A stretch of DNA of 64,000 bases, from contig NC_086383.1 of NCBI RefSeq assembly GCF_036588685.1, positions 42,036,001-42,100,000 on the forward strand. Reading direction: 5' to 3'. The number at the start of each line of letters is the position of its first letter. Position 1 is the first letter of the stretch. This DNA comes from Mytilus trossulus. Lineage: Eukaryota. Both the position numbers and the translations under genes were made by a program. The notes under the pieces were generated by a model. It was not told where the DNA came from. It ran no database searches and worked only from the letters and a program-made list of their open reading frames with translations. This document shows positions 9,581-56,381 of this stretch, in pieces.

Positions 9581-11761
9581 TGAATAAATTTCTATCAAAA
9601 ATAAGGTTCAAAGATATATATTAATACGAATAACAACGTACACAGGTGTTTGCGTATGAATACGCAACGTTAGAGTGGGCGTGTCGCCATAAAAATTGAT
9701 AACATTGAAAATAAAGCTAATTCTTTTAACCAATCAGAAGACGATAAATATACAAAATTTATTCATTTCAAGGAAGGGCCTAATCGTACCTACAATTTTT
9801 ATTAAGGATTTTCGCTCCTCTTGTTTTTGATTCTTTGTCAGATATTTGGAATTCTCTGGTTTTAAAAACGGTACATACAAATGTCAGCCATTATATTGAT
9901 TACGATTATACATATCGACCTTTATTAATCACCCAAATGATATTTTAGCTTTAAAAATTGCTTTTAACGGTTTAACCAAAAAAAAGCCTGTAATCTAGAG
10001 CAAAACCTGTATCTGATTTCCATATATGGATTATACTTTTTGGTTTCAATAGGGTTTCGTAATCTTGTACTTTATAAAACCGCATATAGTTTCTAATCCC
10101 GAACGTCATGAAACAGGTAAACTATATAGTTTCTAAACCCAATCGTGATATAAATTACCTTGTAATCTTTCGAAAAGAAAAAATAACATGTAATTTTAAA
10201 AGCAGTAATTATCTACAAATACATGTATGAGAAAGTGTGAAACGAGAGAGTTTAATAATGTATAAAACACAGTTACAGAAACAGTATTTCTAAACTGTGT
10301 GTCATTTATCAGGTGAGTGATAATATCTTAATGTTTAATTTGATATCAGAGGGTTTTGACGGGGTTTAGGGAATAAAGAATAGAGGGAAAAAATATTAAA
10401 AAATCCATAAAAATCGAGAAAACAGACCAAAAAAAAGTTAAGAATAGAGAATACAAGTGCTAAAATATAAAGAATAGAGAATAATGATCAAAATTTATAA
10501 AAAATAGAAAAAATGGCTTAAAAATTGTATTATCATACAGATAACACAGAAAAAAAAAGAAAAAGAAAAGTAAAATAATTTCATGGTGGAGGTGGTATGT
10601 TTTTTCTTTCTTTCGATACAAACATGCCGTTAAACTTTAACAATACAAGATTCAGATTCCAAATATCTGGCAAAATTTCAAAAACAAGAGAAGCGAACAT
10701 CCTTAATTGAGAAACCAATGCATATACAAACGATTCAAAAGAAAAATTATAGCACGAATTCCATGCGTGTAAAAATATAGAACACTTTTCGGAATACACC
10801 GTAGTAGGATTGTATACAAAAGGACAGACTGTAATTAGACATCAACCCCCTGTTATCTATATTTTTGTTGATCATGCGTGAAATATTTGAGAAAAATCTT
10901 GAACTCTTAACGAGACTTAATGTTTTTAGGTTTAGACTTTTCTTATGATGTTAAAATAATATTAAACAGTATTTATTCGTATGTTACCCGAATAATCAAG
11001 TCGTTATATTCCGCGCTCTACGAGCACTCAATTAACCCTGGACGTAAGAGGGCGCCGCTGAGCGGCAGTATTATCAGGTGTCATCCCGAATTTCCTAAAT
11101 AATAAACACATCAAGAAAAAATAATAATTATTTCCCGAGTCCAGATGAGGGTAAATCCCAAATGCCCGCGAAAATTTAGGGGGACCCTGAATTTTGGAAA
11201 AAATATAGGCCTAATCCCGACGTCCCTAAAAGGTCGTTCAGCCCTTCACAAGTAATGTGGAGTGACCCTTAAGATTCTGTTAAAAGAAAACAGTGTTTTA
11301 AAAAGTTAATACCAATTTCTACTCGTGTGTTTGATTTTAAATATGTTATTTGGATAAATTCTGATAACCATTATCTTTAAAAAGAACAGTCAAATGTGAC
11401 GTTACAAATAAGCCAGGCCAAGAGTAAATTTTTGCAGCTAGGAAAAAGCAATATTTATATCAAGTGAGTAAAATATTAATGACCGACATTTTCATCAGTT
11501 CTCTGAAACAATACCTGACATATCTTAGGGTACGGATGGGGAGTACATCTTTTCTGTATTCTTTAATTTTTTATATAAATTTTCATATTTTTTTCTTTTT
11601 TTCTCCCATTTTTTTCTATTCTTTATATTTTAGGACCCAATTATTCTCTATTCTTTGTTTTTTTGGCCAATTTTTCTCTATTCTTTATTCATTTTGTCAA
11701 TTATTCTCTACAGTTTGCCAATTATTCTCTATCCTGTAATCCCATTCCAGACCCTCATATT

Positions 11762-12918
11762 CACTGTGCTTAAACGGCCGTGGGTAACTTAAGTTACCCA
11801 CAGCCCAAGATGGAACCGCCTGACTTCGGTTAGGAAGTTTGCTCCTATATAATTACAATACCATGAATAAAAAAGAAATGTTCAGTAATTAAAAAGTTAT
11901 TTAAATCTTTTAGGGAAACTCTGCAATGTAAAACGTGGTTAGTTACTACAAAATAAACGATTACAGCACGATTTGCCAAAACACTTATGATGTCCGTAAC
12001 TTCAAAACAACTTGTCCGTAACTTTTTTCCTTATACCAATAGGGATGTCCGTAACTTTAGCATGATATCAGAAACTTTCAAAGAGGTCAATCCTTAGCAG
12101 AAATACAGATGGATCAGTCCAAACCTCTAAAGAAGATATGTATGATTTGATACCCGATCTTATTGAACCCCTGAGGTCAATGAAACTGTTTTAAATCTAC
12201 CTTTATTGCTATAATAAACTAACACATGTTCAACAATATAGCCTTCAACTACTCCTAGATATTGGCATTTTTTTCTCACAATCAACAACACATCACCTAG
12301 TAGAGACCATACCTTTTTGGCTAACAATTCAGAAATTATTTAAAGGAAAGAATATCAATTTTTTCCGCCAAGGACTCATCAGTGAACAATCTATAAAGCT
12401 AGAAGAATGTTGGATAAATTTCGCCGTTCCGTCAGATCCCGTTTTATCCCGGGAATATTTTTTTCAAATTTAACGGAAAATCCGGGACACTCTGGTTCAC
12501 TTTTTCTCTTGTTTAGTTTGAAGCATATCGCTATTGTATAAATCTATGTAATAATTAAGGAGTTTGATAGTGTTTATTGTCCTTTAACTGTTGAAATTGT
12601 TAATCTTACAATTTTGAAAAAGAAGTTACCCACATCCGAAAATAAAGTTACGGACAGTCTGATTATTTTTAACTTATAAGTTACGGACATCTTATGCATT
12701 TTTTAAAAGTTGGCCTTGCGCTAAAGTGAAGTCAAAATTAACGAATTTGAAGTGATGGTAGGTGATTTCTTTATTAAAAAATCCTATCAATATTTACATA
12801 GATCATGAAAAAAGTTGCAAAAAGTATATTTCGTATCAACTGTCATCTCAACGAGTTTAGAGTCCGCCATCTTGGGCTGTGGGTAACTTAACTTACCCAC
12901 GGCCGTTTAAGCACAGTG
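11762..12918. mobile_element. Non-autonomous DNA transposon with CACTGTG...CACAGTG termini and 5-bp TSD (Transib/RAG-like), copy A only
   Basis: ~52-bp TIRs with one mismatch; TSD ATATT at 11757-11761 and 12919-12923; empty site CTCATATTGAC at 51708-51718; no ORF. Confidence 0.85.
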
Positions 12919-13978
12919 ATATTGACAAATGAATTTATAATAATCTAGCTATCTGAAATTATTTGGCAAAAAAACAACCAACAACCGGTCATTAATTGAT
13001 AGGATTCTTCTGTATGATGGTTTAATGTCATTAATTGATAGGATTCTTCTGTATGACGGTTTAATGTCATTAATTGATAGGATTCTTCTGTATGACGGTT
13101 TAATGTCATTAATTGATAGGATTCTTCTGTATGACGGTTTAATGTCATTAATTGATAGGATTATTCTGTATGACGGTTTTATGCCATTAACAGGTAGGAT
13201 TATTCTGTATGACGGTTTTATGTCATTAATTGGTAGGATTATTCTGTATGACGGTTTAATGTCATTAATTGATAGGATTATTCTGTATGACGGTTTAATG
13301 TCATTAATTGGTAGCATTATTCTGTATGATGGTTTAATGTCATTAATTGATAGGATTCTTCTGTATGACGGTTTAATGTCATTCATTGATAGGATTATTC
13401 TGTATGACGGTTTAATGTCATTGATTGATAGGATTATTTTGTATGACGGTTTTATGTCATTAATTGATAGGATTATTCTGTATGACGGTTTAATGTCATT
13501 AATTGGTAGCATTATTCTGTATGGAGGTTTAATATCATTAACTGGTAGGATTATTCTGTATGACGGTTAAATGTCATTAATTGGTAGGATTATTCTGTAT
13601 GACGGTTTAATGTCATTAATTGGTAGGATTATTCTGTATGACGGCTTAATGTCATTAATTGGTAAGATTATTCTGTATGACGGTTTAATGTCATTAATTG
13701 ATAGGATTCTTCTGTATGACGGTTTAATGTCATTAATTGGTAGCATTATTCTGTATGACGGTTTAATGTCATTAATTGATAGGATTATTCTGTATGACGC
13801 TTTCATTTCATTAATTGGTAGGATTATTCTGTATGACGGTTTATTGTCATTAATTGGTAGGACTATTCTGTATGACAGCTTAATGTCATTAATTGGTAGC
13901 ATTATTCTGTATGACGGTTTAATGTCATTAACTGGTAGGATTATTCTGCATGACGGTTTAATGTCATTAATTGGTAAG

Positions 13979-14740
13979 TGTGCTATTGCGGACCTCTTTT
14001 TGTATTGTTACGAGTTACAATTTATGACAAAAATAAGCAAAGACCCATCAAAACAACATCTGATAAACAAATTTAATAATACTTTTAGATATTTGGATGA
14101 TATTTTGGCTCTCAATAATGACGACTTCAGTATGTATATTAATGAAATTTATCCTGGTGAACTCACTTTAAATAAAGCTAATACTAACAATGACCACTGC
14201 CCTTTCCTCGATCTTGATATCTATATCACTAACGGAAAGCTGAATACTAAAATTTATGATAAAAGGGATGATTTTTCATTTCCTATCGTTAATTATCCGT
14301 TTTTAGATGGTGACGTTCCCTTGTCACCATCTTACGGTGTTTATATATCTCAACTTGTACGATTCGCTCGTGTATGTAACAATGTTTTAGATTTTAACGA
14401 GAGAAATTTATGTATTACTGAAAAATTATTACACCAGGGGTTTCGATATCACAAACTAGTCAAAACATTTACTAAATTTTATCATCGGTATAAAGACATC
14501 ATTCGAAAATATAGCTCAACATGCAGACTTTTTATACGTTCAGGTATTTCACATCCAATTTTTTATGGAAATATTCTTTATAAAGCACAAAGGTGTCAGT
14601 ATTCACCTCATAAACTTACAAAACCTTTGAATAGACTTATTAAGAAGGGATATAATTACGATACTGTTGTCAAGTCATTAAAGATTGCATATTTTGGAGT
14701 TAATATTGAGTCACTGATAAGGTCTTTGCGTCGGAACTAA
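13979..14740 (+). pseudogene. RT palm/thumb fragment of the Naiad-type PLE, open to TAA
   Basis: C-terminal ~253 aa of ORF 13571..14740; the ORF's N-terminal part is satellite read-through. Confidence 0.85.
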
Positions 14741-14790
14741 ACACATTTATTCTAAAAACAGTTGTTGGCATGACACGGGTTATGTTCTTC

Positions 14791-14857
14791 TCATATATGT
14801 TATGATGGTATGATACTAAACCCCTTACGGGAAGGATTGTGCCTGATGTTCATATGA
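14791..14857 (+). promoter_or_regulatory. Eukaryotic SECIS element (type II) in the Naiad 3' UTR
   Basis: ATGA at 14802, 12 nt, then AAA at 14818-14820; apical CCC/GGG mini-stem; helix II GGTATGAT/ATTGTGCC; 3' quartet strand TGAT at 14844; helix I TCATAT/ATATGA. Confidence 0.8.
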
Positions 14858-17800
14858 TGAAATCATAATCTTTCAGTCAGTTTAATTGAAGTCTGGAGCT
14901 CGCATGTCAGTTAACTGCTAGTAGTCTGTTGTTATTTATGTATTATTGTCATTTTGTTTATTTTCTTTGGTTACATCTTCTGACATCAGACTCGGACTTC
15001 TCTTGAACTGAATTTTAATGTGCGTATTGTTATGCTTTTACTTTTCTACACTGGTTAGAGGTATAGGGGGAGGGTTGAGATCTCACAAACATGTTTAACC
15101 CCGCCGCATTTTTGCGCCTGTCCCAAGTCAGGAGCCTCTGGCCTTTGTTAGTCTTGTATTATTTAAATTTTAGTTTCTTGTGTACAATTTGGAAATTAGT
15201 ATGGCGTTCATTATCACTGAACTAGTATATATTTGTTTAGGGGCCAGCTGAAGGACGCCTCCGGGTGCGGGAATTTCTCGCTACATTGAAGACCTGTTGG
15301 TGACCTTCTGCTGTTGTATTTTTTTATTTTGGTCGGGTTGTTGTCTCTTTGACACATTCCCCATTTCCATTCTCAATTTTAAGATTATTCTGTATGACGG
15401 TTTCATTGTCATTAATTGGTAGGATTATTCTGTATGATGGTTTAATGTCATTAATTGGTATGATTCTCCTGTATGACGCGGTTAAATGTCATTAATTGGT
15501 AGGATTATTCCGTATGATGGTTTAATGTCGTTAATTGGTAGGATAATTCTGTATGACGGTTTATTTTAATTAATTTGTAGCATTACTCTGAATGATGGTT
15601 TAATGCCATTAATTGGTAAGATTTTCTGTATGACAGTTTAATGTCATTAATTGGAAGGATTATTCTGTATGATGGTTTATTGTCATTAATTGGTAAGATT
15701 ATTCTGTATGACGGTTTAATGTCATTAATTTGTAGGATTATTCTGTATGACTGTTTAATGTCATTAGCTGGTAGGATTATTCTGTATGACGGTTTCATGT
15801 CATTTATTGGTAGGATTATTCTGTTTGATGGTTTAATGTCATTAGTTGGTGAGATTATTCTGTATGATGGTTTAATGTCATTAATTGGTAGGATTATTCT
15901 GTATGATGGTTTATTGTCATTAATTGGTAAGATTATTCTGTATGACGGTTTAATGTCATTAATTGGTAGGATTATTCTGTATGACGGTTTAATGTCATTA
16001 ATTGGTAGATTACTTTTCTTGACGGTTTAATGTCATTAATTGGTAGATTACTTTTCTTGACGGTTTAATGTCATAAATTGGTACAATTATTCTGTATGGC
16101 GGTATAATGTCATAAATTGGTCGGATTATTCTGTACGACGGTTTTACGTCATTTATTGGTAGCATTATTCTGTATGACGGTTTAATGTCATTAACTGGTA
16201 GGATTATTCTGTATGACGGTTTAATGTCATTAATTGGTAGGATTATTCTGTATGACGGTTTAATGTCATTAATTGATAGGATTCTTCTGTATGACGGTTT
16301 AATGTCATTAATTGGTAGGAATATTCTGCATAAAGTTTTAATGTCATTAATTGGTTGGATTATTCTGTTTGACGGTTTAATGTCATTAATTGATAGGATT
16401 ATTCTGTATGACGGTTTAATGTCATAAATTGGTAGGATTCTTCTGTATGACGGTTTAATGTCATTAATTGATAGGATTCTTCTGTATGACGGTTTAATGT
16501 CATTAATTGGTAGCATTATTCTGTATGACGGTTTAATGTCATTAATTGATAGGATTATTCTGTATGACGCTTTCATTTCATTAATTGGTAGGATTATTCT
16601 GTATGACGGTTTATTGTCATTAATTGGTAGGACTATTCTGTATGACAGCTTAATGTCATTAATTGGTACCATTATTCTGTATGACGGTTTAATGTCATTA
16701 ACTGGTAGGATTATTCTGCATGACGGTTTAATGTCATTAATTGGTAAGATTATTCTGTATGACGGTTTCATTGTCATTAATTGGTAGGATTATTCTGTAT
16801 GATGGTTTAATGTCATTAATTGGTATGATTCTCCTGTATGACGCGGTTAAATGTCATTAATTGGTAGGATAATTCCGTATGATGGTTTAATGTCGTTAAT
16901 TGGTAGGATAATTCTGTATGACGGTTTATTTTAATTAATTTGTAGCATTACTCTGAATGATGGTTTAATGCCATTAATTGGTAAGATTTTCTGTATGACA
17001 GTTTAATGTCATTAATTGGAAGGATTATTCTGTATGATGGTTTATTGTCATTAATTGGTAAGATTATTCTGTATGACGGTTTAATGTCATTAATTTGTAG
17101 GATTATTCTGTATGACGGTTTAATGTCATTAGCTGGTAGGATTATTCTGTATGACGGTTTCATGTCATTTATTGGTAGGATTATTCTGTTTGATGGTTTA
17201 ATGTCATTAGTTGGTGAGATTATTCTGTATGATGGTTTAATGTCATTAATTGGTAGGATTATTCTGTATGATGGTTTATTGTCATTAATTGGTAAGATTA
17301 TTCTGTATGACGGTTTAATGTCATTAATTGGTAGGATTATTCTGTATGACGGTTTAATGTCATTAATTGGTAGATTACTTTTCTTGACGTTTTAATGTCA
17401 TTAATTGGTAGATTACTTTTCTTGACGGTTTAATGTCATAAATTGGTACAATTATTCTGTATGGCGGTATAATGTCATAAATTGGTTGGATTATTCTGTA
17501 CGACGGTTTTACGTCATTTATTGGTAGCATTATTCTGTATGACGGTTTAATGTCATTAACTGGTAGGATTATTCTGTATGACGGTTTAATGTCATTAATT
17601 GGTAGGATTATTCTGTATGACGGTTTAATGTCATTAATTGATAGGATTCTTCTGTATGACGGTTTAATGTCATTAATTGGTAGGAATATTCTGCATAAAG
17701 GTTTAATGTCATTAATTGGTTGGATTATTCTGTTTGACGGTTTAATGTCATTAATTGATAGGATTATTCTGTATGACGGTTTAATGTCATAAATTGGTAG

Positions 17801-19358
17801 GATTCTTCTGTATGACGGTTTAATGTCATTAATTTGTAGGAGTATTCTGCATGATGGTTTAATGTAATTAATTGGTAGGATTATTCTGTATAACGGTTTA
17901 ATATAAGATGTGTATTGTTGACTGACTGACTTGCTCATATACAGTATGTTTCTATATGATATTTGCTAGCATACCGTTCTCCCTTAAACTAACTAAGCAT
18001 TTTCATGATATTCTATTCTATTCGATATTTTCCCTATTTATCAAATTAACCATTGGTAGCATTATTCTGTATGACGGTTTAATGTCATTAACTGGTAGGA
18101 TTATTCTGTATGACGGTTTAATGTCATTAATTGGTAGGATTATTCTGTATGACGGTTTTATGTCATTAATTGTTAGAATTCTTCTGTATGACGGTTTAAT
18201 GTCATAAATTGGTAGGATTCTTCTGTATGACGGTTTAATGTCATAAATTGGTAGGATTCTTCTGTATGACGGTTTAATGTCATTAATTGGTAGGAGTATT
18301 CTGCATGATGGTTTAATTTTATTAATTGGTAGGAGTCTTTTGCTTGACGGTTTAATGTAATTAATAGGTAGGATTATTCTGTATAACGGTTTATTATAAG
18401 ATGTGTATTGTTGCATGACTGACTTGCTCATATACAGTATGTTTCCATATGATATTTGCTAGCATACGGTTCTCCCTAAAACTAACGTAGCATTTTCATG
18501 ATATTCTATTCTATTCGATATTTTCCCTATTTATCAAATTAACCACTGTAACAAGTCGATATCAAAATTAAAAAAAAGTAGCAAGTATGTTTGCATTTCA
18601 AAATCAAACTTTAAAAAAATATTTTAAATTTGTTTGAGCGGGCAACTCAACCTAATATTGGACAGTGGTGTAACAGCCAACTTTCAAGGTCAACCATGCA
18701 AAGTGCAGTGCGTTATCCTCACTTTTGTTATTTTAATCAGATTTAATGGGTAATGTTTTTGAAGGAAAGTCATTTTCAAACATCCCTTCGGTCATCATTT
18801 TTGGATTTATTCCTTTACTTTTGTTTTAAAATGGAAGCGTATAGCCAATAAACATATCACTTAAAACCATTAACATATTCAAATAACCTAACGTCATAAC
18901 GTACCAAAAACTAAAACCAGATTGGTCAAAATTGCATCAACAAATTTCAAAAAGCAAGGCTACATACTGTTTCAAACGCTAGTAATTTCTTTGTTTACTC
19001 TTCTTTACTGGAGACAAATTATATTTTGAAAATAAACAATACTCACTATTCAGTTTACTTGCTCGCGATTTGCAGTCATATTCTATGACTGTTTTTTCAC
19101 CTATAAATTAAAATATAATTGTTAGTGATTTTAGTTTGGTACGAAAATTCAGACCTCAGAAGAAAAATCATATTTGAATAGTAAATATTTATTTGCCCAT
19201 AATTGCAGTTAACTTCTATTCTATTACACGCTAAATTGGTCAGTTTTGAAACAAGTCTAGACAATGGTTGTGATTATTGTACCTATCTAACTTGATGTTG
19301 AATATAAGAATATCATTTCGGCAAAGAACTGAAGCATTTAATTTTTCTTAGTAATTGG

Positions 19359-20293: not shown

Positions 20294-20458
20294 ATTTATT
20301 TGTGTTTAAGATTATGATACGTATTGTTTACAATGTTTATATTAATTATTTCCAAGTTTATCCACAAATGTATTTATTTCCTTTGTTCTGATTTTGTTTG
20401 TTTTTTCATATTGCTTTCTTTGAACCAATGCACATCTGTTTCAGGTACCCTAGTTGAT

Positions 20459-21580
20459 ATGCCACCAACGAATATATCATCTTGGTTAAATGCTTTGTTC
20501 AACAGTGTTCCAGATGTAAAGACTGTTCAACAGTTACACGAAATAAGTATTTTCTCACCGAAAAAGCAGTTTTCTGAAGATATACAATTATATTTTATTT
20601 ACTGCCAACCTATACTAATCTCTCTGATTTTAATTTGGATGGGAGTATCACTGAAAATTGTTTGGACAGATGATTTCAGGAACAAATATGGACTGATGAC
20701 AGCTTACACCAGTCTTGAAATAGTCGCATGTATACTGCAAAATATAGCATGCATACTCGTTTTTTCGACAGAAAGCAATTATGTTGAATATGAATGGTGT
20801 TATGTTTATGAAGCGGCATCAGAATATATTCCAGGATGTTTGCATTTAATTTCGAAGGGTTTAAGAATTGGCCATGCTTTGTTAATTGTCATCCTACTTT
20901 ACACACCACTAAAATTCAAAACCATCATCAATATAAAAGCATGTGTTTTGTTTTGCACATTAACTGTTTTTTGTTCATGTACTGTTTTTGTTACATATTT
21001 TTTGTTATCTGTTCGTTTTGAAAAGACAACAGTGTTTGATCAAACCACGCAGGAAATAAAAGCAGTATGTCGACATAAAGATGGTTTCGTCAACTCAAAT
21101 ACAATAAACGAAGATACCGAATTTGTTCGACAGATTATCATGGATGTAATGAGTCATATTGCACCTACTTTATTGATGATATGTCTGTCAATAGCCATTC
21201 ATTTACTTTTAAAAAAACAGATAAAAACCAGACTGAAACTTCGGAGAGAGTGCACGGAACGGGTGAAATCAGACACCAGACTTGCAAGAGTAACATTAGT
21301 GGCGACATTAATCTCTATCATATTCACCCTACCAGCAATACCTACAACTATTGTACTAAACACGGAGTTGAAATCATTGGAAGGTGCAATAAAAATTTTA
21401 GAGATCATCAACACAGTCGTGAAAGTAACATTCATATTAAATGTACCTATTAATTTCTTTATTTTCAGCTGGCTCTCTAAAGACTTCAGAGAAAACATAA
21501 TGAAAATATTGAAGTCTGTACATCTGACGCAGAAGAAACCAAGGGGACATGTTTCATCGCAGGAAGCAATTATAGAATGA
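20459..21580 (+). CDS. Orphan rhodopsin-class 7TM GPCR (FMRFamide/sex-peptide-receptor-like or chemoreceptor-like), 373 aa, copy A
   Basis: Acceptor TTTCAG ends at 20444 before ATG 20459; N-glycosylation site NIS; seven hydrophobic segments; WC at the top of TM3 and an ECL2 Cys; TM5 Pro (IAP), TM6 LP, TM7 PINFFIF plus helix 8 SKDFR. Confidence 0.88.
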   Translation: MPPTNISSWLNALFNSVPDVKTVQQLHEISIFSPKKQFSEDIQLYFIYCQPILISLILIWMGVSLKIVWTDDFRNKYGLMTAYTSLEIVACILQNIACILVFSTESNYVEYEWCYVYEAASEYIPGCLHLISKGLRIGHALLIVILLYTPLKFKTIINIKACVLFCTLTVFCSCTVFVTYFLLSVRFEKTTVFDQTTQEIKAVCRHKDGFVNSNTINEDTEFVRQIIMDVMSHIAPTLLMICLSIAIHLLLKKQIKTRLKLRRECTERVKSDTRLARVTLVATLISIIFTLPAIPTTIVLNTELKSLEGAIKILEIINTVVKVTFILNVPINFFIFSWLSKDFRENIMKILKSVHLTQKKPRGHVSSQEAIIE

Positions 21581-37538: not shown

Positions 37539-40500
37539 TTAATTAAATGCTGCTTCTAACAATTGCCACTTCTGATCCATTTTTATTTTTTGTGTAGGGG
37601 TTAAGAAACATACAGAGTATTTTTCTATTGTAATCCAATACTTTAAATATTCTATCCCACCATATTTTGTGGGCAGTACACTCTTACATCTACATTTGTA
37701 TATATAGTATTTAAATAACAACAAGATATTATTAACTGTTTTACTGTTGACAGAATCCTCAGACACACCTAAAATGACCTCTTTTGCACTAAAAGGCAAG
37801 AAGATTTCGTAATTTCTAATCCAATCTATAATGGATAACCAGAAGTTTTGTGTTACATTACATTCCCAAAAAATGTGAAAAATATTTTCTTTAACTTCTG
37901 AACAAAATGTACATAGTTCAGTTTCTTTTAATTTACATTTATATAAAAAGGAATTACATGGTAAAATCCTATGAACAATCTTAAATTGAAAATTTTGTAA
38001 AAACGAATTTTTGGTTATAATGAAGGGCATGGAATAAATAGCATTCCAATCTTCAATCTGTAAATTTAAGTCTATTTACCATTTGTTACGGGAAGAAAGA
38101 GATAATACTTTATTATCCTCCAGAAATAAATTATAGAAAAAATTACAAGACTTAGGTTCTTTTTTAACTTTATCTACTAATTTATTTTCAATATTATCAA
38201 GTTTAGAACTACCTACTATCCTACTTTTCCATATATTTGGAATAGCACTTAAAATACCATAAAACTCTACAAAATTAGTATTGAAATTATACTTTTTCGC
38301 AAATTCTTCATATGAGAATAATGTATTATTATCTGACACCAGATCATTGATGAAAAATATGCAATTTTCAATATATTTACCCTTCAAAATCATCTTGCCA
38401 TCCATTTTGATGTTTGGATTTAGCCATATGGACTGGGACAGAATATCGGTGTTGTTTTCAACTTTCAGTTTATTTTTCAATTTTGAAAAATTAACCAGGA
38501 TATCATGCCAAAAGGGATTGACTTTTTTTGCTAAATAAAGCAATCCTTCCTTACTTAAATGTAAAATTTTGTCCCCCCCCAAATTTTTGTATATAACTAA
38601 GCAGCAACACTTTCCAAGGAGAGTAATTTTGGGGGTCTAGTAATTTATACAGCCAAGACATTTTAACGCTATAACAAAAATAGTAAATATTAGGCATCTT
38701 AAGACCGCCATCACAGTGTTCGGACATAACCACTGTTCTTTTCACTTTATCTGGTTTTCCTTTCCATAAAAAATTGAAAAATATATTTTGAATCTCCTTC
38801 AAAACCCCATCTGGGGGGTTAGGGAGGACAGTCGGAACTTGAACCAGAATGGGAAGTGCTAAAGTTTTAATCACCACCACCCTCCCAATATATGTTAGTT
38901 CTCTATAAGCCCAAGTATTAAGAAGTGACTTGATACTGTTTATCTTGGCTGTAAAATTACATAGAGTCTTATCCCTTTTAGCAAGCTCAAACCATATTCC
39001 TAATAGTTTGAACCTCCCAGAAAGGTTCCAAACAAGATTTTTTTCTGGTAAAAGTTTTTCCATACTACCCTTTTTTGACCCAATCCATATGGCCTCAGTT
39101 TTGTCAACATTACACCTGAGTCCAGCACATTCTGAAAATTTATCAAACAAATTTAGACATTGATTTAGAGACTTTTGGTCACCATCCAGGACAAGGGAAG
39201 AATCATCAGCATATTGACTCAATAAAAATTCTGAGTCATTAATAGTTACTCCAGCAACATCAGGGTCATTTTTAATAGCTGTCCGTTGTTTAACACTGCA
39301 CTAGAGGCATCACAGTAGCATGCCTTAATCCAACTTATAAATGTTTGGTCAAAGCCATAAAACTGCAACGCCTCTAGTATAAAAGACCATTCGACCGTGT
39401 CGAAAGCTTTTTCAAAATCGACTAAAAGTAAAAGTCCAGGAATGTCGTCTTCCTCCATCTTTTCCATTAGATCATAAATAAATCTAGTACATTCACCTAT
39501 GTACCTACCTTTAAGAAATCCTTTTTGTGTTTGACTTATTATATTTACCAGCACCTTTTTTAGTCTATTTGCTAAACTTGCTGTAGCTATCTTATAGTCT
39601 ACACACAAAAGTGTGATAGGTCGCCAGTTCTTTAAATAAAATTTTGACTTACCCTCCTTTGGTATACAAGTAATGAGTCCCTGTCTTTGTGTGATTGAGA
39701 ACTTTCCATATTCAGGACAGACATTCCTGCATTGTTAAAAGTCCCTCACAGGAACCCACCTCTTCCTCATTCGGTTTTGTAATAAAAGGATTATCATGTT
39801 AAAGAAATGTGTCCCTGTGAGTTTCAAGTAACAATGGTTTACAACAAGTATATAATTTTTTATAAAACTGTTTTTGCTCATTTCTAATAGAACTAGGATC
39901 TGTTATCTCAGTCTCGTCCTCCAAAATAAGTTTGGGAATAATTTTTTCTGTGTAATGTTTTTTTTCCAAATTACAAAAAAAGTTACTTCCCTTTTCCCCC
40001 TCTACTTGCCATCTTGCCTTAGCTCTTGTAATTATCCCTTTTACATTTTTTTCCCTCAATATTTTTAATTCTAGTTCCATCCCTTCCCTTTCTTGGTATA
40101 CTGATGGCAAGTTATTCTCCAAAAGTTTTTCATCTAATAATGATATCTTATATAGTAAATCTTTTTCTTTTTATTTTCTTCTTTTTTCTGGAAAGACGAC
40201 AAAGAGATAGCAGACCCACGGACTTTCATCTTAATCATATCCCATAAAAGCTGATAGCTTATATTAAACTGTTTATCCTCTGTCTCAATATCAATAGATG
40301 GATCAGACTCATATTCTTCAATGACAGTTTTGATGTCCCCTTTTACTTTCTCAATAAATTCAGTTTCCCTTAAAAGACTGTTATTAAATTTCCATGTACC
40401 CTTCCCTCTTATCTGACTAGAAAACTTTAAATTAATCGACACAGGAGAATGATCCGATCTATAACTTATTCCTATATCTGATGAAACTACAAATACTTCT

Positions 40501-41129
40501 ATATCTGATGTAATCATGAAGTAGTCCAAACGACTTTGTTTGTGATTTGGACCCCGCCATGAGTACCTATTATCAAAAGGGTGCTGCTGGCGCCATATAT
40601 CTAATAGATCTAGTTCATGCATTACCTCATGAATCTTGGCTTTTGACTGGGGGTTGTTTTCACTTCTATAATGTAATGTGTCCATGTCATAGTCTTGAAC
40701 AACATTCCAATCTCCCACTACTACAATTGACGAATTGCTGTAGCGGGATATTTTCTGTTTTATGTTCTCAATAAAGACTGGGTCATCATTATTCGGTCCA
40801 TATATAGCTGCCAAAGTTATACGGTAGTCCTGAATAGTGATATCTAATGTAATAAAATTACCCACCAGGTCTATAGTTTCATCATGAATCTTGAATTCGA
40901 AAGTATTTTTGAAAAGAATAGCTACCCCTCTACTTTTACTAGAATAAGAACTAAATTTCCCCACATATCCCCATTCATGAAGCCATTGTTTTTCTTTTTC
41001 AGATGTGCTATGGGTGTCTACTAATATAGTTATATCATATAAGTCCTTATATTTTGTAAATATATCAATTCTTTTAACTGTTTCTGATAAACCCCTGCAG
41101 TTTACGCTACCAATAGTTATATTCGACAT
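37539..41129 (-). pseudogene. LINE ORF2 (APE endonuclease, RT, zf-RVT), fragmented
   Basis: SVNCRGL, IYGPN, GDWN, SRLDY, SDH (APE); WRPITLL, DFEKAFD, YADD (RT); CTFC..ENIFHIFWEC. Several frameshifts; the QG motif region is deleted near 39280. Confidence 0.92.
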
Positions 41130-42530
41130 AATATAATAAAGTGGTTAAAAATGAGTAGCATAAATAATATAAATATCTACAAGCACAATATATCAAAGCA
41201 GCATTAACAAAACATACACACATGCGTCTATAATACGTAAAAGTTGTTTCACAATGTTTCAATTTTTTACTTAAAGTTACCCCCAACCCCCAAAGACTTT
41301 TTGTCGAAAGCACCATGCTATGAATAGAATGAGCATTACTTTTGTGCTAAAGTAGAAACAAAAAAATATATCATAAAAGTTCTGTAAATCTCCAATTTTT
41401 TTTCTCAATTTGCATGTTTTAAATTTTAAATTTGTGTATTGTTTGTCTAAAGGAGAAGACAAACAAATAAAGATGAATTAATAATATTAACATCGTGAAA
41501 AGAAATAACTGAAGAAAAAAGTAAATAACGAAAAAGAAACAACACAGAATATTTAACAACACATAAACATGATAAACTTGTATTCACACAATGTAAACAA
41601 AACACATATAAATATATATACACACATGCGCCCCACATGCATTTACTGATACAAGAACATACATCTATAATTTTTCCTGTCTGAATTTTTAAACAGCACA
41701 GATTCACTACCTTTACATGTACATTCTCTTTATTTTGCATAAATATTGTAAGAAGAGTGTCAATTCTTAAGTATGAACATACCCAGATTTGACGAATCTA
41801 TTTATAGAAGATTATTTTTGCATACATATCAAGGTTGGATCCGTAATTTTAATAATGAACTATCTAAAAGTACATGTGAACCTATGACCTGTTTTATACC
41901 ATGTTGTAGTTATACTTATAGCTACATGTATTTGTTGGAGAAAGCCTGTCAATTTCAAATAAATTGCATGCTGGTAGGTTTATGCATACATGTAGGGTTT
42001 GTTTCTAACTGGATCATAATATCCATGTAATCAGACTAGTTTTATCAAAGTATCTAAACGGTCAATGAAAATTCGTTTTAATACGTTTAGATGACGCCGT
42101 GTATATTGTCATTGATTAAGATTTTACTTATATTTAATTATAAAATAGAATACGCTATATTGGGTACACTTTTGCATATCAGTATAGTGCCATTTCAGTT
42201 TTTGAGTTAATAATCACAGTAAAAACCGATTAATTCTTACCAATAATCTTTAAAAAGTGTATTTTCAATGTGTGTTTTTTATAAAAATTGTACACCGGAA
42301 GTTTTGAAACGGATAGTAAAAGTATACACAAAGACGGAAATGACTTTTTATATTCCGTAAAAAAACAAAATTAAACTCAGGTAATTCTGACTACAATACA
42401 AATATTCACACTTACAACTCTTGTGAAAAGGAAAAAAACGAAATACTATAGGAAAAACAACCATAAACGAGAACAACATTAAATAGATTGAAAAGAATGG
42501 ACATCAAATATTAAATGGACAGTTATGCAT

Positions 42531-43494
42531 CTATTCTATGCCGGATTTTAGTTTCTGCCTTATGTTGTCGTAAATGTCAAAACGATGCCGATCTCCGTTA
42601 TTGTCAGTGCCATATATGTGTCCGTTGAAATACCACGCACTGGTAACATCCTCATGTAGGTATAACCGATTAAGAAGTCCTTGGTTTAATCGTGTTACAT
42701 CATCAGAAATCCGAACTTCCAACTTCTCATTGATTAGTTTTCTATTTCGAAGTAAAGCAATTTTAGATTCCATGCGGAGAAATTTTACTAAAATTGGCCT
42801 AGGTTTGCCCGGTTTTCCAGGGATCCTGTGTGCTTCTACAATTTCTGATTGGTCAATATTAACGTCCAGTTTACCTATCTCAGTGAGAAAATTGTGAGGC
42901 AATTTTTCCCCCCTTTTTTTCTGGAAAGTCAAATATTTTAACGTTTTTCTTCCTTGAATATTGTTCATTCCAATTAGATAATTGCATTGCATCTGTTGCA
43001 CGCCTACCTGTATTTTCTATTTCTTCTTTCAGTAGTCTGTTCTCTTTATGAAGGCTTGCGTTGTTTTCTAAAATATTTGCATTGTCAAATTCTACGCTAT
43101 CAATTCTTGCACTTAGCCTAGATACTTCTGATTTAAAGTGTTGTTCTACTTTCTCTTGGTTAGATTGAATTTCGACCATCATTTCTTTTTTTAGTTCTTT
43201 TTTCATCTCTTTTTTCATTTGGGTGAGTAAGCTTGTTACAGTTTGTGTTACAATCAATTCAACATCTTCTTTTCTCAATATGTTTTTCATGGAATTTCTT
43301 ATTTCATTTAATTCTGTTTCAATGCATAGACTGTGATCGCCATCGCTAGATAGGCATGTAAGCGGGCGTTTTGCAGATTTTGGTTTTGCGGGTGTTGAGT
43401 CACTAAATACAGAGTCGTCATTTTCCGGTGTAGCAGATAGTTTGCCAACGTTAGCTGTCGATACAAAGCTTGTTATTTGCTGTTGTAGTGCCAT
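42531..43494 (-). pseudogene. LINE ORF1 (coiled coil plus L1-type RRM/CTD), frameshifted near 42910
   Basis: EQYSRKKNVKIFDFPE joins AHRIPGKPGKPRPILVKF...ISDDVT...AWYFNG across two frames. Confidence 0.85.
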
Positions 43495-46400
43495 TATCGG
43501 AGGACGGAAAATGTTAATGTTTAAATACTATACTATACAATATTGATATCTGGCTTTGTTTTGTTTTTGTTTACAAAATTTACGATCTATTTTTGAACTG
43601 CTATATAGTGAGTGTTTTTTACTCAATTAAGTCACTACCAATGTCTATATTTAGAATGTTTTTTTCTATCTTGAATCTAACATTTCATTGCAGTAAAAAT
43701 TTACTGAGTCATAAACATATATCTTGGGTGTTTCAACGCCCATTATTTTTTTTCATTTGGTGTTTCTATAGAATATTTTGGAAAGTTGAGGTTTTCTGGT
43801 GAGTGAAGCTTATACACAGGGAAAAAAAGGGATGATAATTTGTTGGTTAACTTCCAGTGTTGGTTAGTTTCTTATATGCAATGAAATGTATGTGAAATTT
43901 TGTCTATAGTACTGGACAGGATAAAACTTTACTCATGCAAAGTATTTCTTTATTTGAAACAAAGATAAATTCTGCACATTTTTTAAAAAGTGCAAATTTA
44001 CCAAAGACTTATAAGGGAATGTCAATGTTGGTATTACACCTATTGTCGGAAGCTGCACATGCACCTTTAACTTGTGAGTACTCACATTTGTTAAAATGTC
44101 ATGCTATTTAAGTGAAATATTCTGAGTGAATTGAGTCTCAAAAACTCATTTTATGAGAAAACTGCCTTGAAATAGGACTCTACCTTGAATGTTAGTAGAC
44201 AGAACAGACATACTCAGTCTTTTGGGGAGCTTGTTCTCACTTTTTCTCCTTATTTCTTATATTTTGCTATAATAGAAAACTTTTTCCGAAGAAATACTTT
44301 AATAAATAGATAGATATTAGTAAATGATTTTTTTTTAAGCAGTAACAACAAATTATTTACGTAAAGGGAAGCTTTGTATGTCCCTCTCTGGAATGCGGCG
44401 TAAATTTGAATTTTTCGGAAGGACTTGTTGAAACCTCAATGGAGTCAGTAAACATTTATATGGATAGTTCATTCGGCTTGAATACTTCAATACTCAATCA
44501 CATTTCTTTCATAAATGAGTGAAAGTAACATCAACAAATACTAAAATTTTGAGTAAATGAGAGGTATAAATGAAACAAAAGAGACCTTATAATGAAGATA
44601 AAGGGGTTTCAGTGGTATTTATCATCCTAAAGTCATCTAGTGTATCATATTCAACTGTGTGTAGGCAGATGAGATAACACTATATTCTACCATGATGCGG
44701 CTTGATTTGAATTTTTCGAAGAAATTTTGCTTGATCACTGTCGATGTCGTCTTACAATATACTAGATTTTTCTCAAACTAATGAACTGATTATGATAAAA
44801 CTTGACATAAAATAACCAGTATTACAAAGGGAAACAATCACATTCAGTTTATTCAATAAAAAAGTATTCTTTATGTGAAAAACCACCAAATCATACTACG
44901 TCACATCCGGTTGCATCTTAAAAAGGGTTAACAATAAATATTACCTTGGATTTGACAGTTGTAGGAAATTAATCTTAATTTTCATTGCAGTAAAAAATTT
45001 CTGAGTCATAAACATATATCTTGTGTGTTTCAAAGCACCATTATTTTTTTTTATTTGGTGTTTCTATTGATTATTTTTGAAAGTAGAGATTACATAAAGC
45101 TTGTACACATGTAAAATATGATTGGCTAATTTCCAGTGATTGTTATTTTCTTATATGCAATGAAATGTTATGTGAAATTTTATCTATGGTACTGGACAGG
45201 ATTGAACTTTACTCATGCCAAGTATTTCTTTATTTGAAACAAAGATAAATTCATCACATTTTTTTTTAAAAGTGCAAATTAAACAAAGAATAATATGGGA
45301 AAGTCAATGGTGGTATTACACGTAAAGGAAGCCGTCTACGGAGAAAACCATCGACCTTCGGTAGGAAAACTGACATTTCTAGTCAATTAAGGTTGGAGTC
45401 GAGTGCACCCGCACGAGCGAGGTTCGAACTCACAACCTCAGTGTTGACTGGCTAGTGATTACAGTAGTTAAACTGCTTAGACCACTTGACCACCGAGGCG
45501 CCTGGTTCCTCTTTTTATATCAGTCAGTTGATATTGTACCACTAAGCACAACTTTTCACATTGTCGAAATTTTATACGCTGCAAGGTATATTAAATGTCA
45601 TTCATTTCTTAATAAAAAACTGTGGAATGCCATTTAAGAATTAATGGTTTGGAATTCATAGTACTGTAAGCTTTCAATTGCTATATTGTCTTTAGTAGTA
45701 TTGCTAGGAAACATTCTATATCCATCTACATAACTCGAAAAATTCAGCGCCATCTTACGGTCGGTGTCGTTCAGAGTTAATCGAGTGATCGTAGTGAGCG
45801 GAATATAACGACTGGATTATTCGGGTTAACATCTACAAGTATGGTAGTTAATTAATATAACTTCATATACAATAGATGTGACTTTTTAAAATCAATCCTT
45901 TTTTCACGATAAAGATTAAAACTTTCTACAGATTATTCAGTGACTTGGTTCCTCAAATTAACTCTTTTTATATATTAATAAATGGTGTCTTCATAAATTT
46001 GTAAGGTCTTTCCACATTACTTTTCTAAGTAGTTAATAAGAAGCTACTTCCGATTCAATTAAAGTTACCATTGGCATTCAATTATATAAATTTCTTCATA
46101 CTAATTAAAAAATTATAAGGTTTCTATATACTTTTAACTTAAATATGGGAAATACTTTGCTACTTCCGGTTAATAAAATATCATTTCTGGTTTCATATGA
46201 TAGCTTTCTATGCACTGATTCCAAAATTATAATGGTTTTCATATACTTTTTCCTTAAATATAGGATATAATTTGCTACACCCGGTTAAAAAAAATGTCAT
46301 TTCCGGTTTCATAAGATAGCTTACTTTCAACTTATTCCGAAAATGTATGATTTCTATAATAGATACTTTTCTTTCAAATAAGGGAGATACTAAGCTACTT

Positions 46401-49501: not shown

Positions 49502-51779
49502 TAAATAAATTTCTATCAAAAATAAGGTTCAAAGATATATATTAATACGAATAACAACGTACACAGGTGTTTGCGTATGAATACACAACGTTAGAGTGGG
49601 CGTGTCTCCATAAAAATTGATAACATTGAAAATAAAGCTAATTCTTTTAACCAATCAGAAGACGGTAAATATACAAAATTTATTTATTTCAAGGAAGGGC
49701 CTAATCGTACCTACAATTTTTATAAGGATTTTCGCTCCTCTTGTTTTTGATTCTTTGTCAGATATTTGGAATTCTCTGGTTTTAAAAACGGTACATACAA
49801 ATGTCAGCCATTATATTGATTACGATTATACATATCGACCTTTATTAATCACCCAAATGATATTTTAGCTTAAAAAATTGCTTCTAACGGTTTAACAAAA
49901 AAAAAAGCCTGTAATCTAGAGCAAAACCTTTATCTGATTTCCATATATGGATTATACTTTTTGGTTTCAATAGGGTTTCGTAATCTTGTACTTTATAAAA
50001 CAGCATATAGTTTCTAATCCCGAACGTCATGAAACAGGTAAACTATATAGTTTCTAAACCCAATCGTGATATAAATTACCTTGTAATCTTTCGAAAAGAA
50101 AAAAAACATGTAATTTTATAAGCAGTAATTATCTACAAATATGAGAAAGTGTGAAACGAGAGAGTTTGATAATGTATAAAACACAGTTACAGAAACAGTA
50201 TTTCTAAACTGTGTGTCATTTATCAGGTGAGTGATAATATCTTAATGTTTGATTTGATATCAGAGGGTTTTGACGGAGTTTAGGGAATAAAGAATAGAGG
50301 GAAAAAATATAAAAAAATCCATAAAAATCGAGAAAACAGACCAAAAAAAAAATTAAGAATAGAGAATACAAGTGCTAAAATATAAAGAATAGAGAATAAT
50401 GATCAAAATTTATAAAAAATAGAAAAAATGGCTTAAAAATTGTATTATCATACAGATAACACAGAAAAAAAAGAAAAAGAAAAGTAAAATAATTTCATGG
50501 TGGAGGTGGTATGTTTTTTTCTTCTTGATACAAACATGCTTTTAAACTTTAACAATACAAGATTCAGATTCCGAATATCTGGCAAAATTTCAAAAACAAG
50601 AGAAGCGAACATCCTTAATTGAGAAACCAATGCATATACAAACGATTCAAAAGAAAAATTATAGCACGAATTCCATGCGTGTAAAAATATAGAACACTTT
50701 TCGGAATACACCTCAGTAGGATTGTATGCAAAAGGACAGACTGTAATTAGACATCAACCCCCTGTTATCTATATTTTTGTTGATCATGCGTGAAATATTT
50801 GAGAAAAATCTTGAACTCTTAACGAGACTTAATGTTTTTAGGTTTAGACTTTTCTGATGATGTTAAAATAATATTAAACAGTATTTATTCGTATGTTACC
50901 CGAATAATCAAGTCGTTATATTCCGCGCTCTACGAGCACTCAATTAACCCTGGACGTAAGAGGGCGCCGCTGAGCGGCAGTATTATCAGGTGTCATCCCG
51001 AATTTCCTAAATAATAAACACATCAAGAAAAAATAATCATTATTTCCCGAGTCCCGATGAGGGTAAATCCCAAATGCCCGCGAAAATTTAGGGGGACCCT
51101 GAATTTTGGCAAAAATATAGGCCTAGTCCCGACGTCCCTAAAAGGTCCCTAAAAGGTCGTTCAGCCCTCCACAAGTAATATGGAGTGACCCTTAAGATTC
51201 TGTTAAAAGAAAACAGTGTTTTAAAAAGTTAATACCAATTTCTACTCGTGTGTTTGATTTTAAATATGTTATTTTGATAAATTCTGATAACCATTATCTT
51301 TAAAAAGAACAGTCAAATGTGACGTTGCAAATAAGCCAGGCCAAGTGTAAATTTTTGCAGCTAGGAAAAAGCAATATTTATATCAAGTGAGTAAAATATT
51401 AATGACCGACATTTTCATCAGTTCTCTGAAACAATACCTGACATAGCTTAGGGTACGGATGGGGAGTACATCTTTTCTGCATTCTTTAATTTTTTTATAT
51501 AATTTTTCATTTCTTTTCTTTTTTTCTCCCATTTTTGTCTATTCATTATATTTTAGGACCCAATTATTCTCTATTCTTTATATTTTAGGACCCAATTATT
51601 CTCTATTCTTTGTTTTTTTGTCAATTTTTCTCTATTCTTTATTCATTTTGTCAATTATTCTCTACAGTTTGCCAATTATTATCTATCCTGTAATCCCATT
51701 CCAGACCCTCATATTGACAAATGAATTTATTATAATCTAGCTATCTGAAATTATTTGGCAAAAAAACAACCAACAACCG

Positions 51780-54197
51780 GTCATTAATTGATAGGATTCT
51801 TCTGTATGACGGTTTAATGTCATTAATAGGTATCATTATTCTGTTTGATGGTTTAATGTCATTAATTGGTAGCATTATTCTGTATGACAGTTTAATGTCA
51901 TTAATTGGTAGCATTATTCTATATGACGATTTAATGTCATTAATTGATAGGATTATTCTGTATGACGGTTTTATGTCATTAATTGATAGGATTCTTCTGT
52001 ATGATGGTTTAATGTCATTAATTGGTAGCATTATTCTGTATGACGGTTTAATGTCTTTAATTGGTAGGATTATTCTGCATGACGGTTTAATGTCATTAAT
52101 TGATAGGATTATTCTGTATGACGGTTTAATGTCATTAATTGATAGGATTCTTCTGTATGACGGTTTTATGTCATTAATTGATAGGATTCTTCTGTATGAT
52201 GGTTTAATGTCATTAATTGGTAGCATTATTCTGTATGACGGTTTAATGTCTTTAATTGGTAGGATTATTCTGCATGACGGTTTAATGTCATTAATTGGTA
52301 GCATTATTCTGTATGATGGTTTAATGTCATTAATTGATAGGATTCTTCTGTATGACGGTTTAATGTCATTAATTGATAGGATTATTCTGTATGACGGTTT
52401 AATGTCATTAATTGATAGGATTATTCTGTATGACGGTTTTATGTCATTAATTGATAGGATTCTTCTGTATGACGGTTTAATGTCATTAATTGGTAGCATT
52501 ATTCTGTATGACGGTTTAATGTCATTAACTGGTAGGATTATTCTGTATGACGGTTTAATGTCATTAATTGGTAGGATTATTCTGTATGACGGTTTAATGT
52601 CATTAATTGGTAGGATTAATCTGTATGACGGCTTAATGTCATTAATTGGTAAGATTATTCTGTATTACGGTTTAATGTCATTAATTGATAGGATTCTTCT
52701 GTATGACGGTTTAATGTCATTAATTGGTAGCATTATTCTGTATGACGGTTTAATGTCATTAATTGATAGGATTATTCTGTATGACGGTTTCATGTCATTA
52801 ATTGGTATCATTATTCTGTATGACGGTTTATTTTCATTAATTGGTAGGACTATTCTGTATGACAGCTTAATGTCATTAATTGGTAGCATTATTCTGTATG
52901 ACGGTTTAATGTCATTAATTGGTAAGATTATTCTGTACGACGGTTTCATTGTCATTAATTGGTAGGATTATTCTGTATGATGGTTTAATTTCATTAATTG
53001 GTATGATTCTCCTGTATGACGCGGTTTAATGTCATTAATTGGTAGGATAATTCTGTATGACGGTTTAATTGAATTAATTTGTAGCATTACTCTGGATGAT
53101 GGTTTAATGCCATTAATTGGTAGGATTTTCTGTATGACGGTTTAATGTCATTAATTGGAAGGATTATTCTGTATGATGGTTTATTGTCATTAATTTGTAA
53201 GATTATTCTGTATGACGGTTTAATGTCATTAATTTGTAGGATTATTCTGTATGACGGTTTAATGTCATTAGCTGGTAGGATTATTCTGTATGACGGTTTC
53301 ATGTCATTTATTGGTAAGATTAATCTGTTTGATGGTTTAATGTCATTAGTTGGTGAGATTATTCTGTATGACAGTTTGATGTCATTAATTGGTAGGATTA
53401 TTCTGTATGATGGTTTATTGTCATTAATTGGTAAGATTATTCTGTATGACGGTTTAATGTCATTTATTGGTAGGATTATTCTGTATGACGGTTTAATGTC
53501 ATTAATTGGTAGATTCCTTTTCTTGACGGTTTAATGTCATAAATTGGTACAATTATTCTGTATGGCGGTTTAATGTCATAAATTGGTCGGATTATTCTGA
53601 ACGACGGTTTTACGTCATTAATTGGTAGCATTATTCTGTATGATGGTTTAATGTCATTAACTGGTAGGATTATTCTGTATGACGGTTTAATGTCATTAAT
53701 TGGTAGGATTATTCTGTATGACGGTTTAATGTCATTAATTGATAGGATTCTTCTGTATGAGGGTTTAATGTCATTAATTGGTAGGATTATTCTGTATAAC
53801 GGTTTAACGTCATTAATTGGTAAGATTATTCTGTATGACGGTTTAATGTCATTAATTGGTAAGATTATTCTGTATGACGGTTTAATGTCATTAACTGGTA
53901 GGATTATTCTGTATGACGGTTTAATGTCATTAATTGATAGGATTATTCTGTATGACGGTTTAATGTCATTAATTGATAGGATTCTTCTGTATGACGGTTT
54001 TATGTCATTAATTTGTAGGATTCTTCTGTATGACGGTTTAATGTCATAAATTGGTAGGATTCTTCTGCATGACGGTTTAATGTCATTAATAGGTAGGAGT
54101 ATTCTGCATGATGGTTTAATTTCATTAATTGGTAGGAGTATTTTGCTTGACGGTTTAATGTAATTAATTGGTAGGATTATTCTGTATAATGGTTAAA
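51780..54197. repeat. 39-bp satellite array, copy B (uninterrupted, shorter)
   Basis: Same unit; no Naiad and no 1365-bp duplication. Confidence 0.97.
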
Positions 54198-55160
54198 TAT
54201 AAGATGTGTATTGTTGCATGACTGACTTGCTGATATACAGTATGTTTCTATATGATATTTGCTAGCATACGATTCTCCCTTAAACTAACGTAGCATTTTC
54301 ATGATATTCTATTCTATTCGATATTTTCCCTATTTATCAAATTAAGCACTGTAACAAGTCGACATCAAAATTAAAAAAAGTAGCAAGTATGTTTGCATTT
54401 CAATATCAAACTTTTAAAAAATATTTTAAATTTGTTTGAGCGGGCAACTCAACCTAATATTGGACAGTGGTGTAACAGCCAACTTTCAAGGTCAACCATG
54501 CAAAGTGCAGTGCGTTATCCTCACTTTTGTTATTTAAATCAGATTTAATGGGTAATGCTTTTGAAGGAAAGTCATTTTCAAACATCCGTTCGGTCATCAT
54601 TTTTGGATTGATTACTTTACTTTTGTTTTAAAATGGAAGCGTATAGCCAGTAAACATATCACTTAAAACCATTAACATATTCAAATAACCTAACTTCATA
54701 ACGTACCAAAAACTAAAACCAGATTGGTCAAAATTGCATCAACAAATTTCAAAAAGCAAGGCTACATACTGTGTCAAACGCTAGTAATTTCTTTGTTTAC
54801 TCTACTTTACTGGAGACAAATTATATTTTGAAAATAAACAATACTCACTATTCAGTTTACTTGCTCGCGATTTGCAGTCATATTCTATGACTGTTTTTTC
54901 ACCTATAAATTAAAATATAATTGTAAGTGATTTTAGTTTGGTACGAAAATTTTGACCTCAGAAGAAAAATCATATTTGAATAGTAAATATTTATTTGCCC
55001 ATAATTGCAATTAACTTCTATTCTATTACACGCTAAATTGGTCAGTTTTGAAACAAGTCTAGACAATGGTTGTGATTATTGTACCTATCTAACTTGATGT
55101 TGAATATAAAAATATCATATCGGCAAAGAACTGAAGCATTTAATTTTTCTAAGTAATTGG

Positions 55161-56216: not shown

Positions 56217-56381
56217 ATTTATTTGTATTTAAGATTATGATACGTATTGTTTACAATGTTTATATTAATTATTTCCAAGTTTATCCACATAAGTATTTAT
56301 TTCCTTTGTTCTGATTTTGTTTGTTTTTTCATATTGCTTTCTTTGAACCAATGCACATCTGTTTCAGGTACCCTAGTTGAT

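Follow-up and report, generated by a model that had tools for sequence, protein, structure and literature searches.

A gene-less inverted-repeat transposon with paired and mirrored 12-bp motifs in a duplicated block of the Mytilus trossulus genome

The element and the duplicated block around it

The window, the whole 64,000-nucleotide stretch of Mytilus trossulus DNA that was analysed, contains an element of 1157 bp at 11762–12918. Read inward, either end of the element gives CACTGTG, and here the coordinates and letters of the preliminary description were borne out by the window sequence. The terminal inverted repeats (TIRs) are 52 bp each and 51/52 identical (E 7e-20, BLAST of the window against itself). 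They had been described as about 52 bp long and ending in CAAGATGG(C); the length and CAAGATGG held for both TIRs, whereas the final C follows in the right one only. ATATT flanks the element on the left and on the right. The features of the locus are listed below by window position (TSD, target-site duplication; L048, a sister copy described in the next section).

11757–11761, no strand: left ATATT copy; a 5-bp TSD, or flank A, TSD TAT (11758–11760) and the element's terminal T (11761)
11762–11813, + strand: left TIR, 52 bp, or 53 bp if T11761 is the terminal base; ends in CAAGATGG
11779–11790 (variant) and 11791–11802: motif pair of the left TIR, a back-to-back palindromic pair of 12-bp motifs
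11814–11990, no strand: left spacer, 177 bp; about 72% identity to L048, unrelated to the right spacer
11991–12057, + strand: left subterminal array of three exact TGTCCGTAACTT copies, with starts at 230, 252 and 285 bp counted from the left end
12059–12570, no strand: non-coding, replaceable interior; no homology to the 1.2-kb L048 interior and no Pfam match in the frames scanned
12623–12689, − strand: right subterminal array of three motif copies, with starts at 285, 263 and 230 bp counted from the right end
12690–12866, no strand: right spacer, 177 bp; about 80% identity to L048
12867–12918, − strand: right TIR, 52 bp; one base (12892) unlike the left TIR
12919–12923, no strand: right ATATT copy; a 5-bp TSD, or terminal A (12919), TAT and flank T
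51711–51715, no strand: empty target site in the paralogous (or allelic) block

The longest stop-to-stop frame in the element is 92 aa. None of the nine longer stop-to-stop frames scanned matched Pfam, and the element gave no match in Rfam. No DDE transposase-like ORF was recognised by eye among the 45 window ORFs of at least 100 aa, and in the six window ORFs scanned with Pfam the matches were to a LINE endonuclease and to PAN, with a single weak one to a coiled coil. In the sister copy L048, none of 12 longer stop-to-stop frames rose above the Pfam cut-off (one weak match, E 0.047), and scans of viral, genome and metagenome contigs found no autonomous partner or long copy. Because a transposase was not found, the superfamily was read from the ends alone.

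A block of about 26 kb occurs twice in the window, each copy with many private insertions: approximately 268–26215 matches approximately 35359–62128, with 94–98% identity in the main non-repetitive pieces. At 51711–51715 the second block has a single ATATT and the element is absent, and the flanks around the insertion site differ between the blocks at 53 of 2895 aligned positions (1.8%). The two blocks may have arisen by duplication in tandem, or may be two haplotypes that the assembly placed one after the other; whether paralogs or haplotypes, the simplest reading would be that the element inserted after the blocks diverged. Its presence in one block copy and absence from the other upheld the earlier proposal of a recently mobile, non-autonomous TIR transposon. 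Its TIRs, the target duplication relative to the empty site, the dispersed copies and the lack of a transposase place it among non-autonomous TIR DNA transposons. The empty paralog had also been taken to back a 5-bp TSD. The empty site is indeed exact, but CAC..GTG with a 5-bp ATATT and TCAC..GTGA with a 3-bp TAT rebuild the identical empty sequence, and it thus gives no specific support for 5 bp.

Several other repeats and frames lie in the two blocks. An AT-rich repeat of about 230 bp at 11526–11756, built of 30–32-bp units and with inverted ends that are weak, terminates directly at the insertion site and is likely another small element; related units occur in inverted orientation at 10400–10524 and 50314–50439. 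A 39-bp (13-codon) satellite forms long arrays at 12988–18393 and 51780–54198, and the first-block array is broken at about 13977–15382 by an open frame that by eye resembles the end of a reverse transcriptase, with no Pfam match. Two copies of an intact 420-codon frame (20318–21580 and 56241–57503) appear by eye to encode a multi-pass membrane receptor-like protein; the one copy scanned had no Pfam match at E 0.001. A broken LINE with an endonuclease domain at 37539–43527 (− strand) is private to the second block.

Family copies and a conserved 12-bp motif

To place the window copy among its relatives, contigs from other sources were compared with it. Parts of the element occur in at least 20 runs, drawn from 10 studies, and four of the runs are labelled mollusc metagenome. 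Four runs out of the whole set were examined, and each yielded element contigs (17, 62, 378 and 887 records) in which alternative letters and internal skips were numerous; summed contig depths were not taken as copy numbers, and runs with a low word share and no contig assembly were left out of the evidence. One contig of 878 letters differs from the window copy at 7 letters, and position 12892, where the window TIRs disagree, is G in most of the contig depth of three runs. The empty-site joint was seen in two of the four runs and may be the paralog.

A complete sister copy, L048, spans 436–2310 of its contig (1875 bp) and was the one family member among 42 metagenome loci (43 stretches) collected with a degenerate TIR pattern. 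Its own two TIRs are 52/52 identical and match those of the window copy at 51/52 and 50/52 positions. Its arms, of about 297 and 348 bp, are 82–83% identical to the window copy, whereas its 1.2-kb interior is unrelated to the window copy's interior. At 12058 and 12571, loose ends in the runs leave the window copy and continue with letters of the L048 interior, indicating that the second subfamily also exists in those runs. Thus, two subfamilies have arms of about 300–350 bp in common and unrelated interiors. The target of L048 reads AACTT. Within the L048 interior, positions 1661–1687 are a 27-bp piece of a repeat also found at 63190–63216 of the window, which suggests captured or nested host DNA.

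The TIR patterns gave no match in viral contigs, genome contigs or the first metagenome scan, in which L048 was missed by one base. A two-motif pattern returned 24 viral loci, which were rejected as none is related to the element (best E 0.007). The same 18-bp palindrome was seen in fifteen contigs of one assembly (L032, L033, L036, L038, L040, L042–L044, L051, L056, L057, L060, L062, L064 and L065) and in a few of others, where it lies within another dispersed repeat that is flanked by C/G runs and lacks a CAC terminus. The curated library of bivalve DDE elements (PMC10294476), compared over the first 400 letters of each sequence, contained no start resembling the element's TIR and no match to the 12-bp motif described below. 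No published description of the TIR family was found in the literature; the TCAC terminus as such lay outside that search, and Repbase or Dfam may already include the family.

The motif TGT(C/G)(C/G)GTAACTT occurs in eight exact copies in the element and nowhere else in the 64 kb (chance mean 0.03). Each TIR carries a back-to-back pair, which makes the sequence locally palindromic, and one member is slightly altered in the window copy. In the window copy, the subterminal motifs start at 230, 252 and 285 bp when measured from the left end and at 230, 263 and 285 bp when measured from the right; the corresponding values in L048 are 230/252/285 and 228/261/283 bp. The arrays are therefore mirrored at 230–296 bp from both ends, and the spacings of 22 and 33 bp correspond to whole helical turns. 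Long degenerate TIRs were considered as an explanation and rejected, because shuffled sequences align as well as the arm spacers do. The left and right 177-bp spacers are unrelated (shuffles scored as well in 158/300 cases for the window copy and 33/300 for L048), so the mirrored distances are not the remnant of a long TIR.

Between the two subfamilies, the six subterminal motifs are identical at 72/72 positions, compared with 363/460 in the rest of the arms (P 1.5e-7). Judged by this conservation, the motifs are predicted to be cis-acting protein sites under selection for mobility, and the 12-bp motif is likely the site of a transposase or helper protein. Subterminal motif arrays occur in other superfamilies too, and outer and inner sites about 230 bp apart resemble those of IR/DR Tc1 elements.

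Element termini and superfamily assignment

To compare the two possible TSD lengths, the ends of other copies were tallied by hand from those listed in the read contigs of the four runs and in the L048 contig, excluding the window copy. The tally covers the listed ends, with a further 256 loose-end rows and 1350 pieces beyond the listing, and two or more rows may represent a single end. Rows with short anchors favour the window copy's own flank, whereas long-anchored rows, with at least 50 letters inside the element, are free of flank selection. A 5-bp TSD repeats the same five letters on both sides, and T beside CAC must consequently equal A five positions out in frequency. Among the ends listed, a small and partly biased sample, the base adjoining CAC was T in 14/15, and the fifth base out was A in 6 of the 10 readable ends. 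In the long-anchored ends among those listed, T stood beside CAC in 7/8, above background (P 0.003), and A at −5 in 1/3. The 6/10 at −5 would be low if the true rate were 14/15 (binomial P 0.003); the contrast of −1 with −5 was not significant in a Fisher test (P 0.064 for all ends and 0.15 for the long-anchored ones).

In one run, the common TIR contig starts exactly at T and three flanks diverge at the next base. Whether CAC or TCAC is taken as the end, L048 lacks a TSD at every length between 1 and 8, and for this reason it may be a chimeric assembly. Repeated ATATT/TATT loose ends were not accepted as evidence that the target is fixed and AT-rich: the overlap of the flank contigs with the TIR is only about 30 letters, and a match to the window flank favours their recruitment. 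Judged from these end sequences, a TCAC terminus with a 3-bp TSD is probably the right reading, at about two in three. The preliminary description had mentioned TCAC..GTGA with a 3-bp TAT only as a caveat, and the ends of other copies now favour it (T at −1 in 14/15 of those listed). No TCAC-starting consensus followed any of the three header endings tested in the curated bivalve library (PMC10294476).

The element had been assigned to RAG-like transposons, and that assignment was not supported on several points: the match to the RAGL consensus is 8/17, TR5 is reversed, a nonamer is lacking and the target is AT-only. Compared with the protostome RAGL consensus (PMC7204232), the TIR agrees at 8/17 positions and has CTT instead of AAA at positions 8–10. 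In ProtoRAG, TR5 reads GCCATCTTG inward and lies 27/31 bp after the heptamer (PMC8289069). In the element, TR5 is present only as the reverse complement, starting at TIR position 45; the description of CAAGATGG as the reverse complement of a ProtoRAG motif is accordingly right as to a 9-bp TR5 string on the opposite strand, in an orientation that is wrong for ProtoRAG. Published TSDs of non-autonomous RAGL elements (PMC7204232 Fig. S2b) are AT-only in 0/14 cases, one ends in T, and their GC content is 66%; 16 rows of the figure give a 5′ TSD, two were dropped for mismatched sides and 14 match or nearly so.

A non-autonomous, ProtoRAG-like RAGL element mobilised by a RAG1L/RAG2L pair would account for the CAC terminus and a possible 5-bp TSD, and RAGL elements with non-autonomous derivatives are known in bivalves (PMC7204232). 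This origin is nevertheless highly improbable given the 8/17 match, the missing AAA at 8–10, the reversed TR5 and the 0/14 AT-only RAGL TSDs. Furthermore, the oyster and pearl-oyster RAGL TIRs presented in PMC7204232 agree with the element's TIR in the first few bases only and become asymmetric after about 13 bp, compared with the element's symmetric 52 bp, and no non-autonomous RAGL element was found in the two mussels surveyed there. Overall, the element resembles RAGL/ProtoRAG non-autonomous elements (PMC7204232, PMC8289069) in its CAC start and in the 9-bp TR5 string on the opposite strand of one end, and it differs in the 8/17 match, the lack of the TR2 AAA at 8–10, the reversed TR5, the symmetric 52-bp TIR and the AT-only target. 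A CAC start together with CAAGATGG is not diagnostic of RAG or Transib, because bivalve Tc1 elements and a Chapaev3 TIR have similar features: 21 curated bivalve Tc1 consensus sequences begin with CACT and one has CCAAGATGGCC about 35 bp in (PMC10294476), and a lizard Chapaev3 TIR begins with CACTATG (PMC3014272), which equals the ProtoRAG heptamer (PMC8289069). A RAG-type origin is unlikely, and the likeness of the ends to antibody-gene recombination signals is a loose one.

The main rival is a Transib origin, in which the element would be non-autonomous, end in CAC, have a genuine 5-bp TSD and belong to a lineage preferring an unusual AT-rich A-N-N-N-T target. It holds this place because of the perfect 5-bp repeat, the near-consensus heptamer and the fixed palindromic targets of some Transib families. 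The window site fits a perfect 5-bp TSD; CACTGTG is near the Transib consensus CACAATG; on the CAC reading of the end, though not on the TCAC one, the element has the invariant Transib CAC at positions 1–3 and an A at position 35; and palindromic targets are strongly specified in some Transib families (PMC1131882). A at −5 in 6/10 scored ends among those listed, including one long-anchored L048 end, points the same way. Transib targets, however, are strongly GC-rich (PMC1131882), against the AT-only ATATT of the element and AACTT of L048, and the best nonamer candidate matches 4/9 positions of the RSS nonamer at spacings of 11–13 and 22–24 bp. A at −5 is broken in 4/10 ends against 1/15 for T at −1 (among the ends listed; binomial P 0.003 if the rates were equal), and Transib accounted for 1 of 14,275 DDE ORFs in a mollusc survey (PMC10294476). 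Non-autonomous Transib elements (PMC1131882) thus share the CAC(T)GTG heptamer-like end, symmetric TIRs, a possible 5-bp TSD and A at 35 with the element, which differs in its AT-only target, the absence of an A-rich nonamer, the near-invariant T beside CAC and the motif arrays. A Transib origin is doubtful on this balance, and less likely than the TCAC/3-bp reading: possible but not favoured.

If the element belonged to another or an unclassified DDE superfamily (hAT5, a lineage of the PHIS type, or Tc1-like elements that have inner binding sites), its CAC-like end would be a coincidence. We regard this as unlikely, although bivalve Tc1 consensus sequences commonly begin with CACT (21 cases; PMC10294476) and NuwaII in PHIS has the same 3- versus 5-bp ambiguity on record (PMC4482050). 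The likeness of the outer and inner sites, about 230 bp apart, to IR/DR Tc1 elements also speaks for it. The TA duplication of Tc1/mariner is absent at the window copy and at L048. In the portion of the bivalve library available (PMC10294476), hAT5 starts with CAGG in 14/14 consensus sequences listed, of 16, and the element differs from these and from the Sola1, Zator, Merlin and ISL2EU starts among those listed. Given CAC ends, the PHIS target rules ANT, AT, TWA and CWG misfit the flanks (PMC4482050). Chapaev3 (PMC4079192, PMC3014272) shares the CACTG start, as in a bivalve Chapaev3 consensus, the AT-rich target and heptamer-like starts. It duplicates TWA between A and T, so that A adjoins CAC (PMC4079192), and it was rejected on this TSD, T standing beside CAC in 14/15 of the ends listed.

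In CACTA elements the TSD is 3 bp, and subterminal motifs in both direct and inverted orientation are bound by TnpA; in En-1 these motifs are 12 bp long (PMC2613891). The element likewise carries short subterminal motifs in direct and inverted copies, as in CMC (EnSpm/Chapaev) elements; the CACTG core is present at its terminus, and a 3-bp TSD would need an extra terminal T. With the non-autonomous EnSpm/CACTA elements dSpm and Tgm (PMC2613891), it shares the CACTG core, a likely 3-bp TSD, a replaceable interior and a 12-bp motif in direct and inverted copies within the subterminal 300 bp. It differs in the likely extra terminal T, a 52-bp rather than a 13-bp TIR and the lack of any transposase seen; and EnSpm/CACTA arrays are asymmetric, whereas the element's motifs are few and stand at mirrored fixed distances. 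By analogy, EnSpm/CACTA is the closest working model for the element. Described CMC-Transib lineages begin with CA, not T (PMC12730594), and because an extra terminal T would depart from these, we did not file the element as a CMC member. Only two CMC families have been curated in bivalves (PMC10294476).

Proposed mobilisation and implications

The element is a gene-less TIR transposon of a multi-copy family. We consider it about an even proposition (roughly 0.5) that it is moved in trans by cut-and-paste by an enzyme on the CMC (EnSpm/Chapaev) side of the CMC-Transib clade, and not by one of RAG/Transib type, and that it has a T-CAC terminus and a 3-bp TSD. A transposase encoded elsewhere, or a TnpA-like helper protein, would bind TGT(C/G)(C/G)GTAACTT at the back-to-back pair in each TIR and at the three copies spaced 22 and 33 bp apart, 230–296 bp from each end. 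The motif-bound sites would bring the two element ends together, and the enzyme would then cut at the termini and insert the element with a short stagger, the sequence between the two arrays being dispensable filler. The window copy would have landed after the flanking blocks diverged, and the element is likely young and recently active.

Tentatively, the family might represent a lineage new to the CMC-Transib clade, with recent activity in molluscs and recognisable by TCAC..GTGA ends, 3-bp duplications and phased 12-bp sites 230 and 285 bp from the ends. If this were true, the transposase of that lineage would sit between EnSpm/Chapaev and Transib/RAG in end recognition, and the motif arrays would act as a ruler, with helically phased candidate sites held at fixed distances across unrelated spacers. 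What is new here is the 12-bp motif paired within the TIRs and the mirrored subterminal arrays.

As it stands, the finding adds one more gene-less DNA transposon family to a repeat-rich invertebrate genome. It also carries a caution, namely that CAC ends and an apparent 5-bp duplication in a single copy do not identify Transib or RAG. If the TCAC/3-bp ends and the mirrored arrays hold, they would suggest that an unplaced lineage within the clade ancestral to RAG1 has a transposase that was active recently, and would offer a ready prediction of its binding site.
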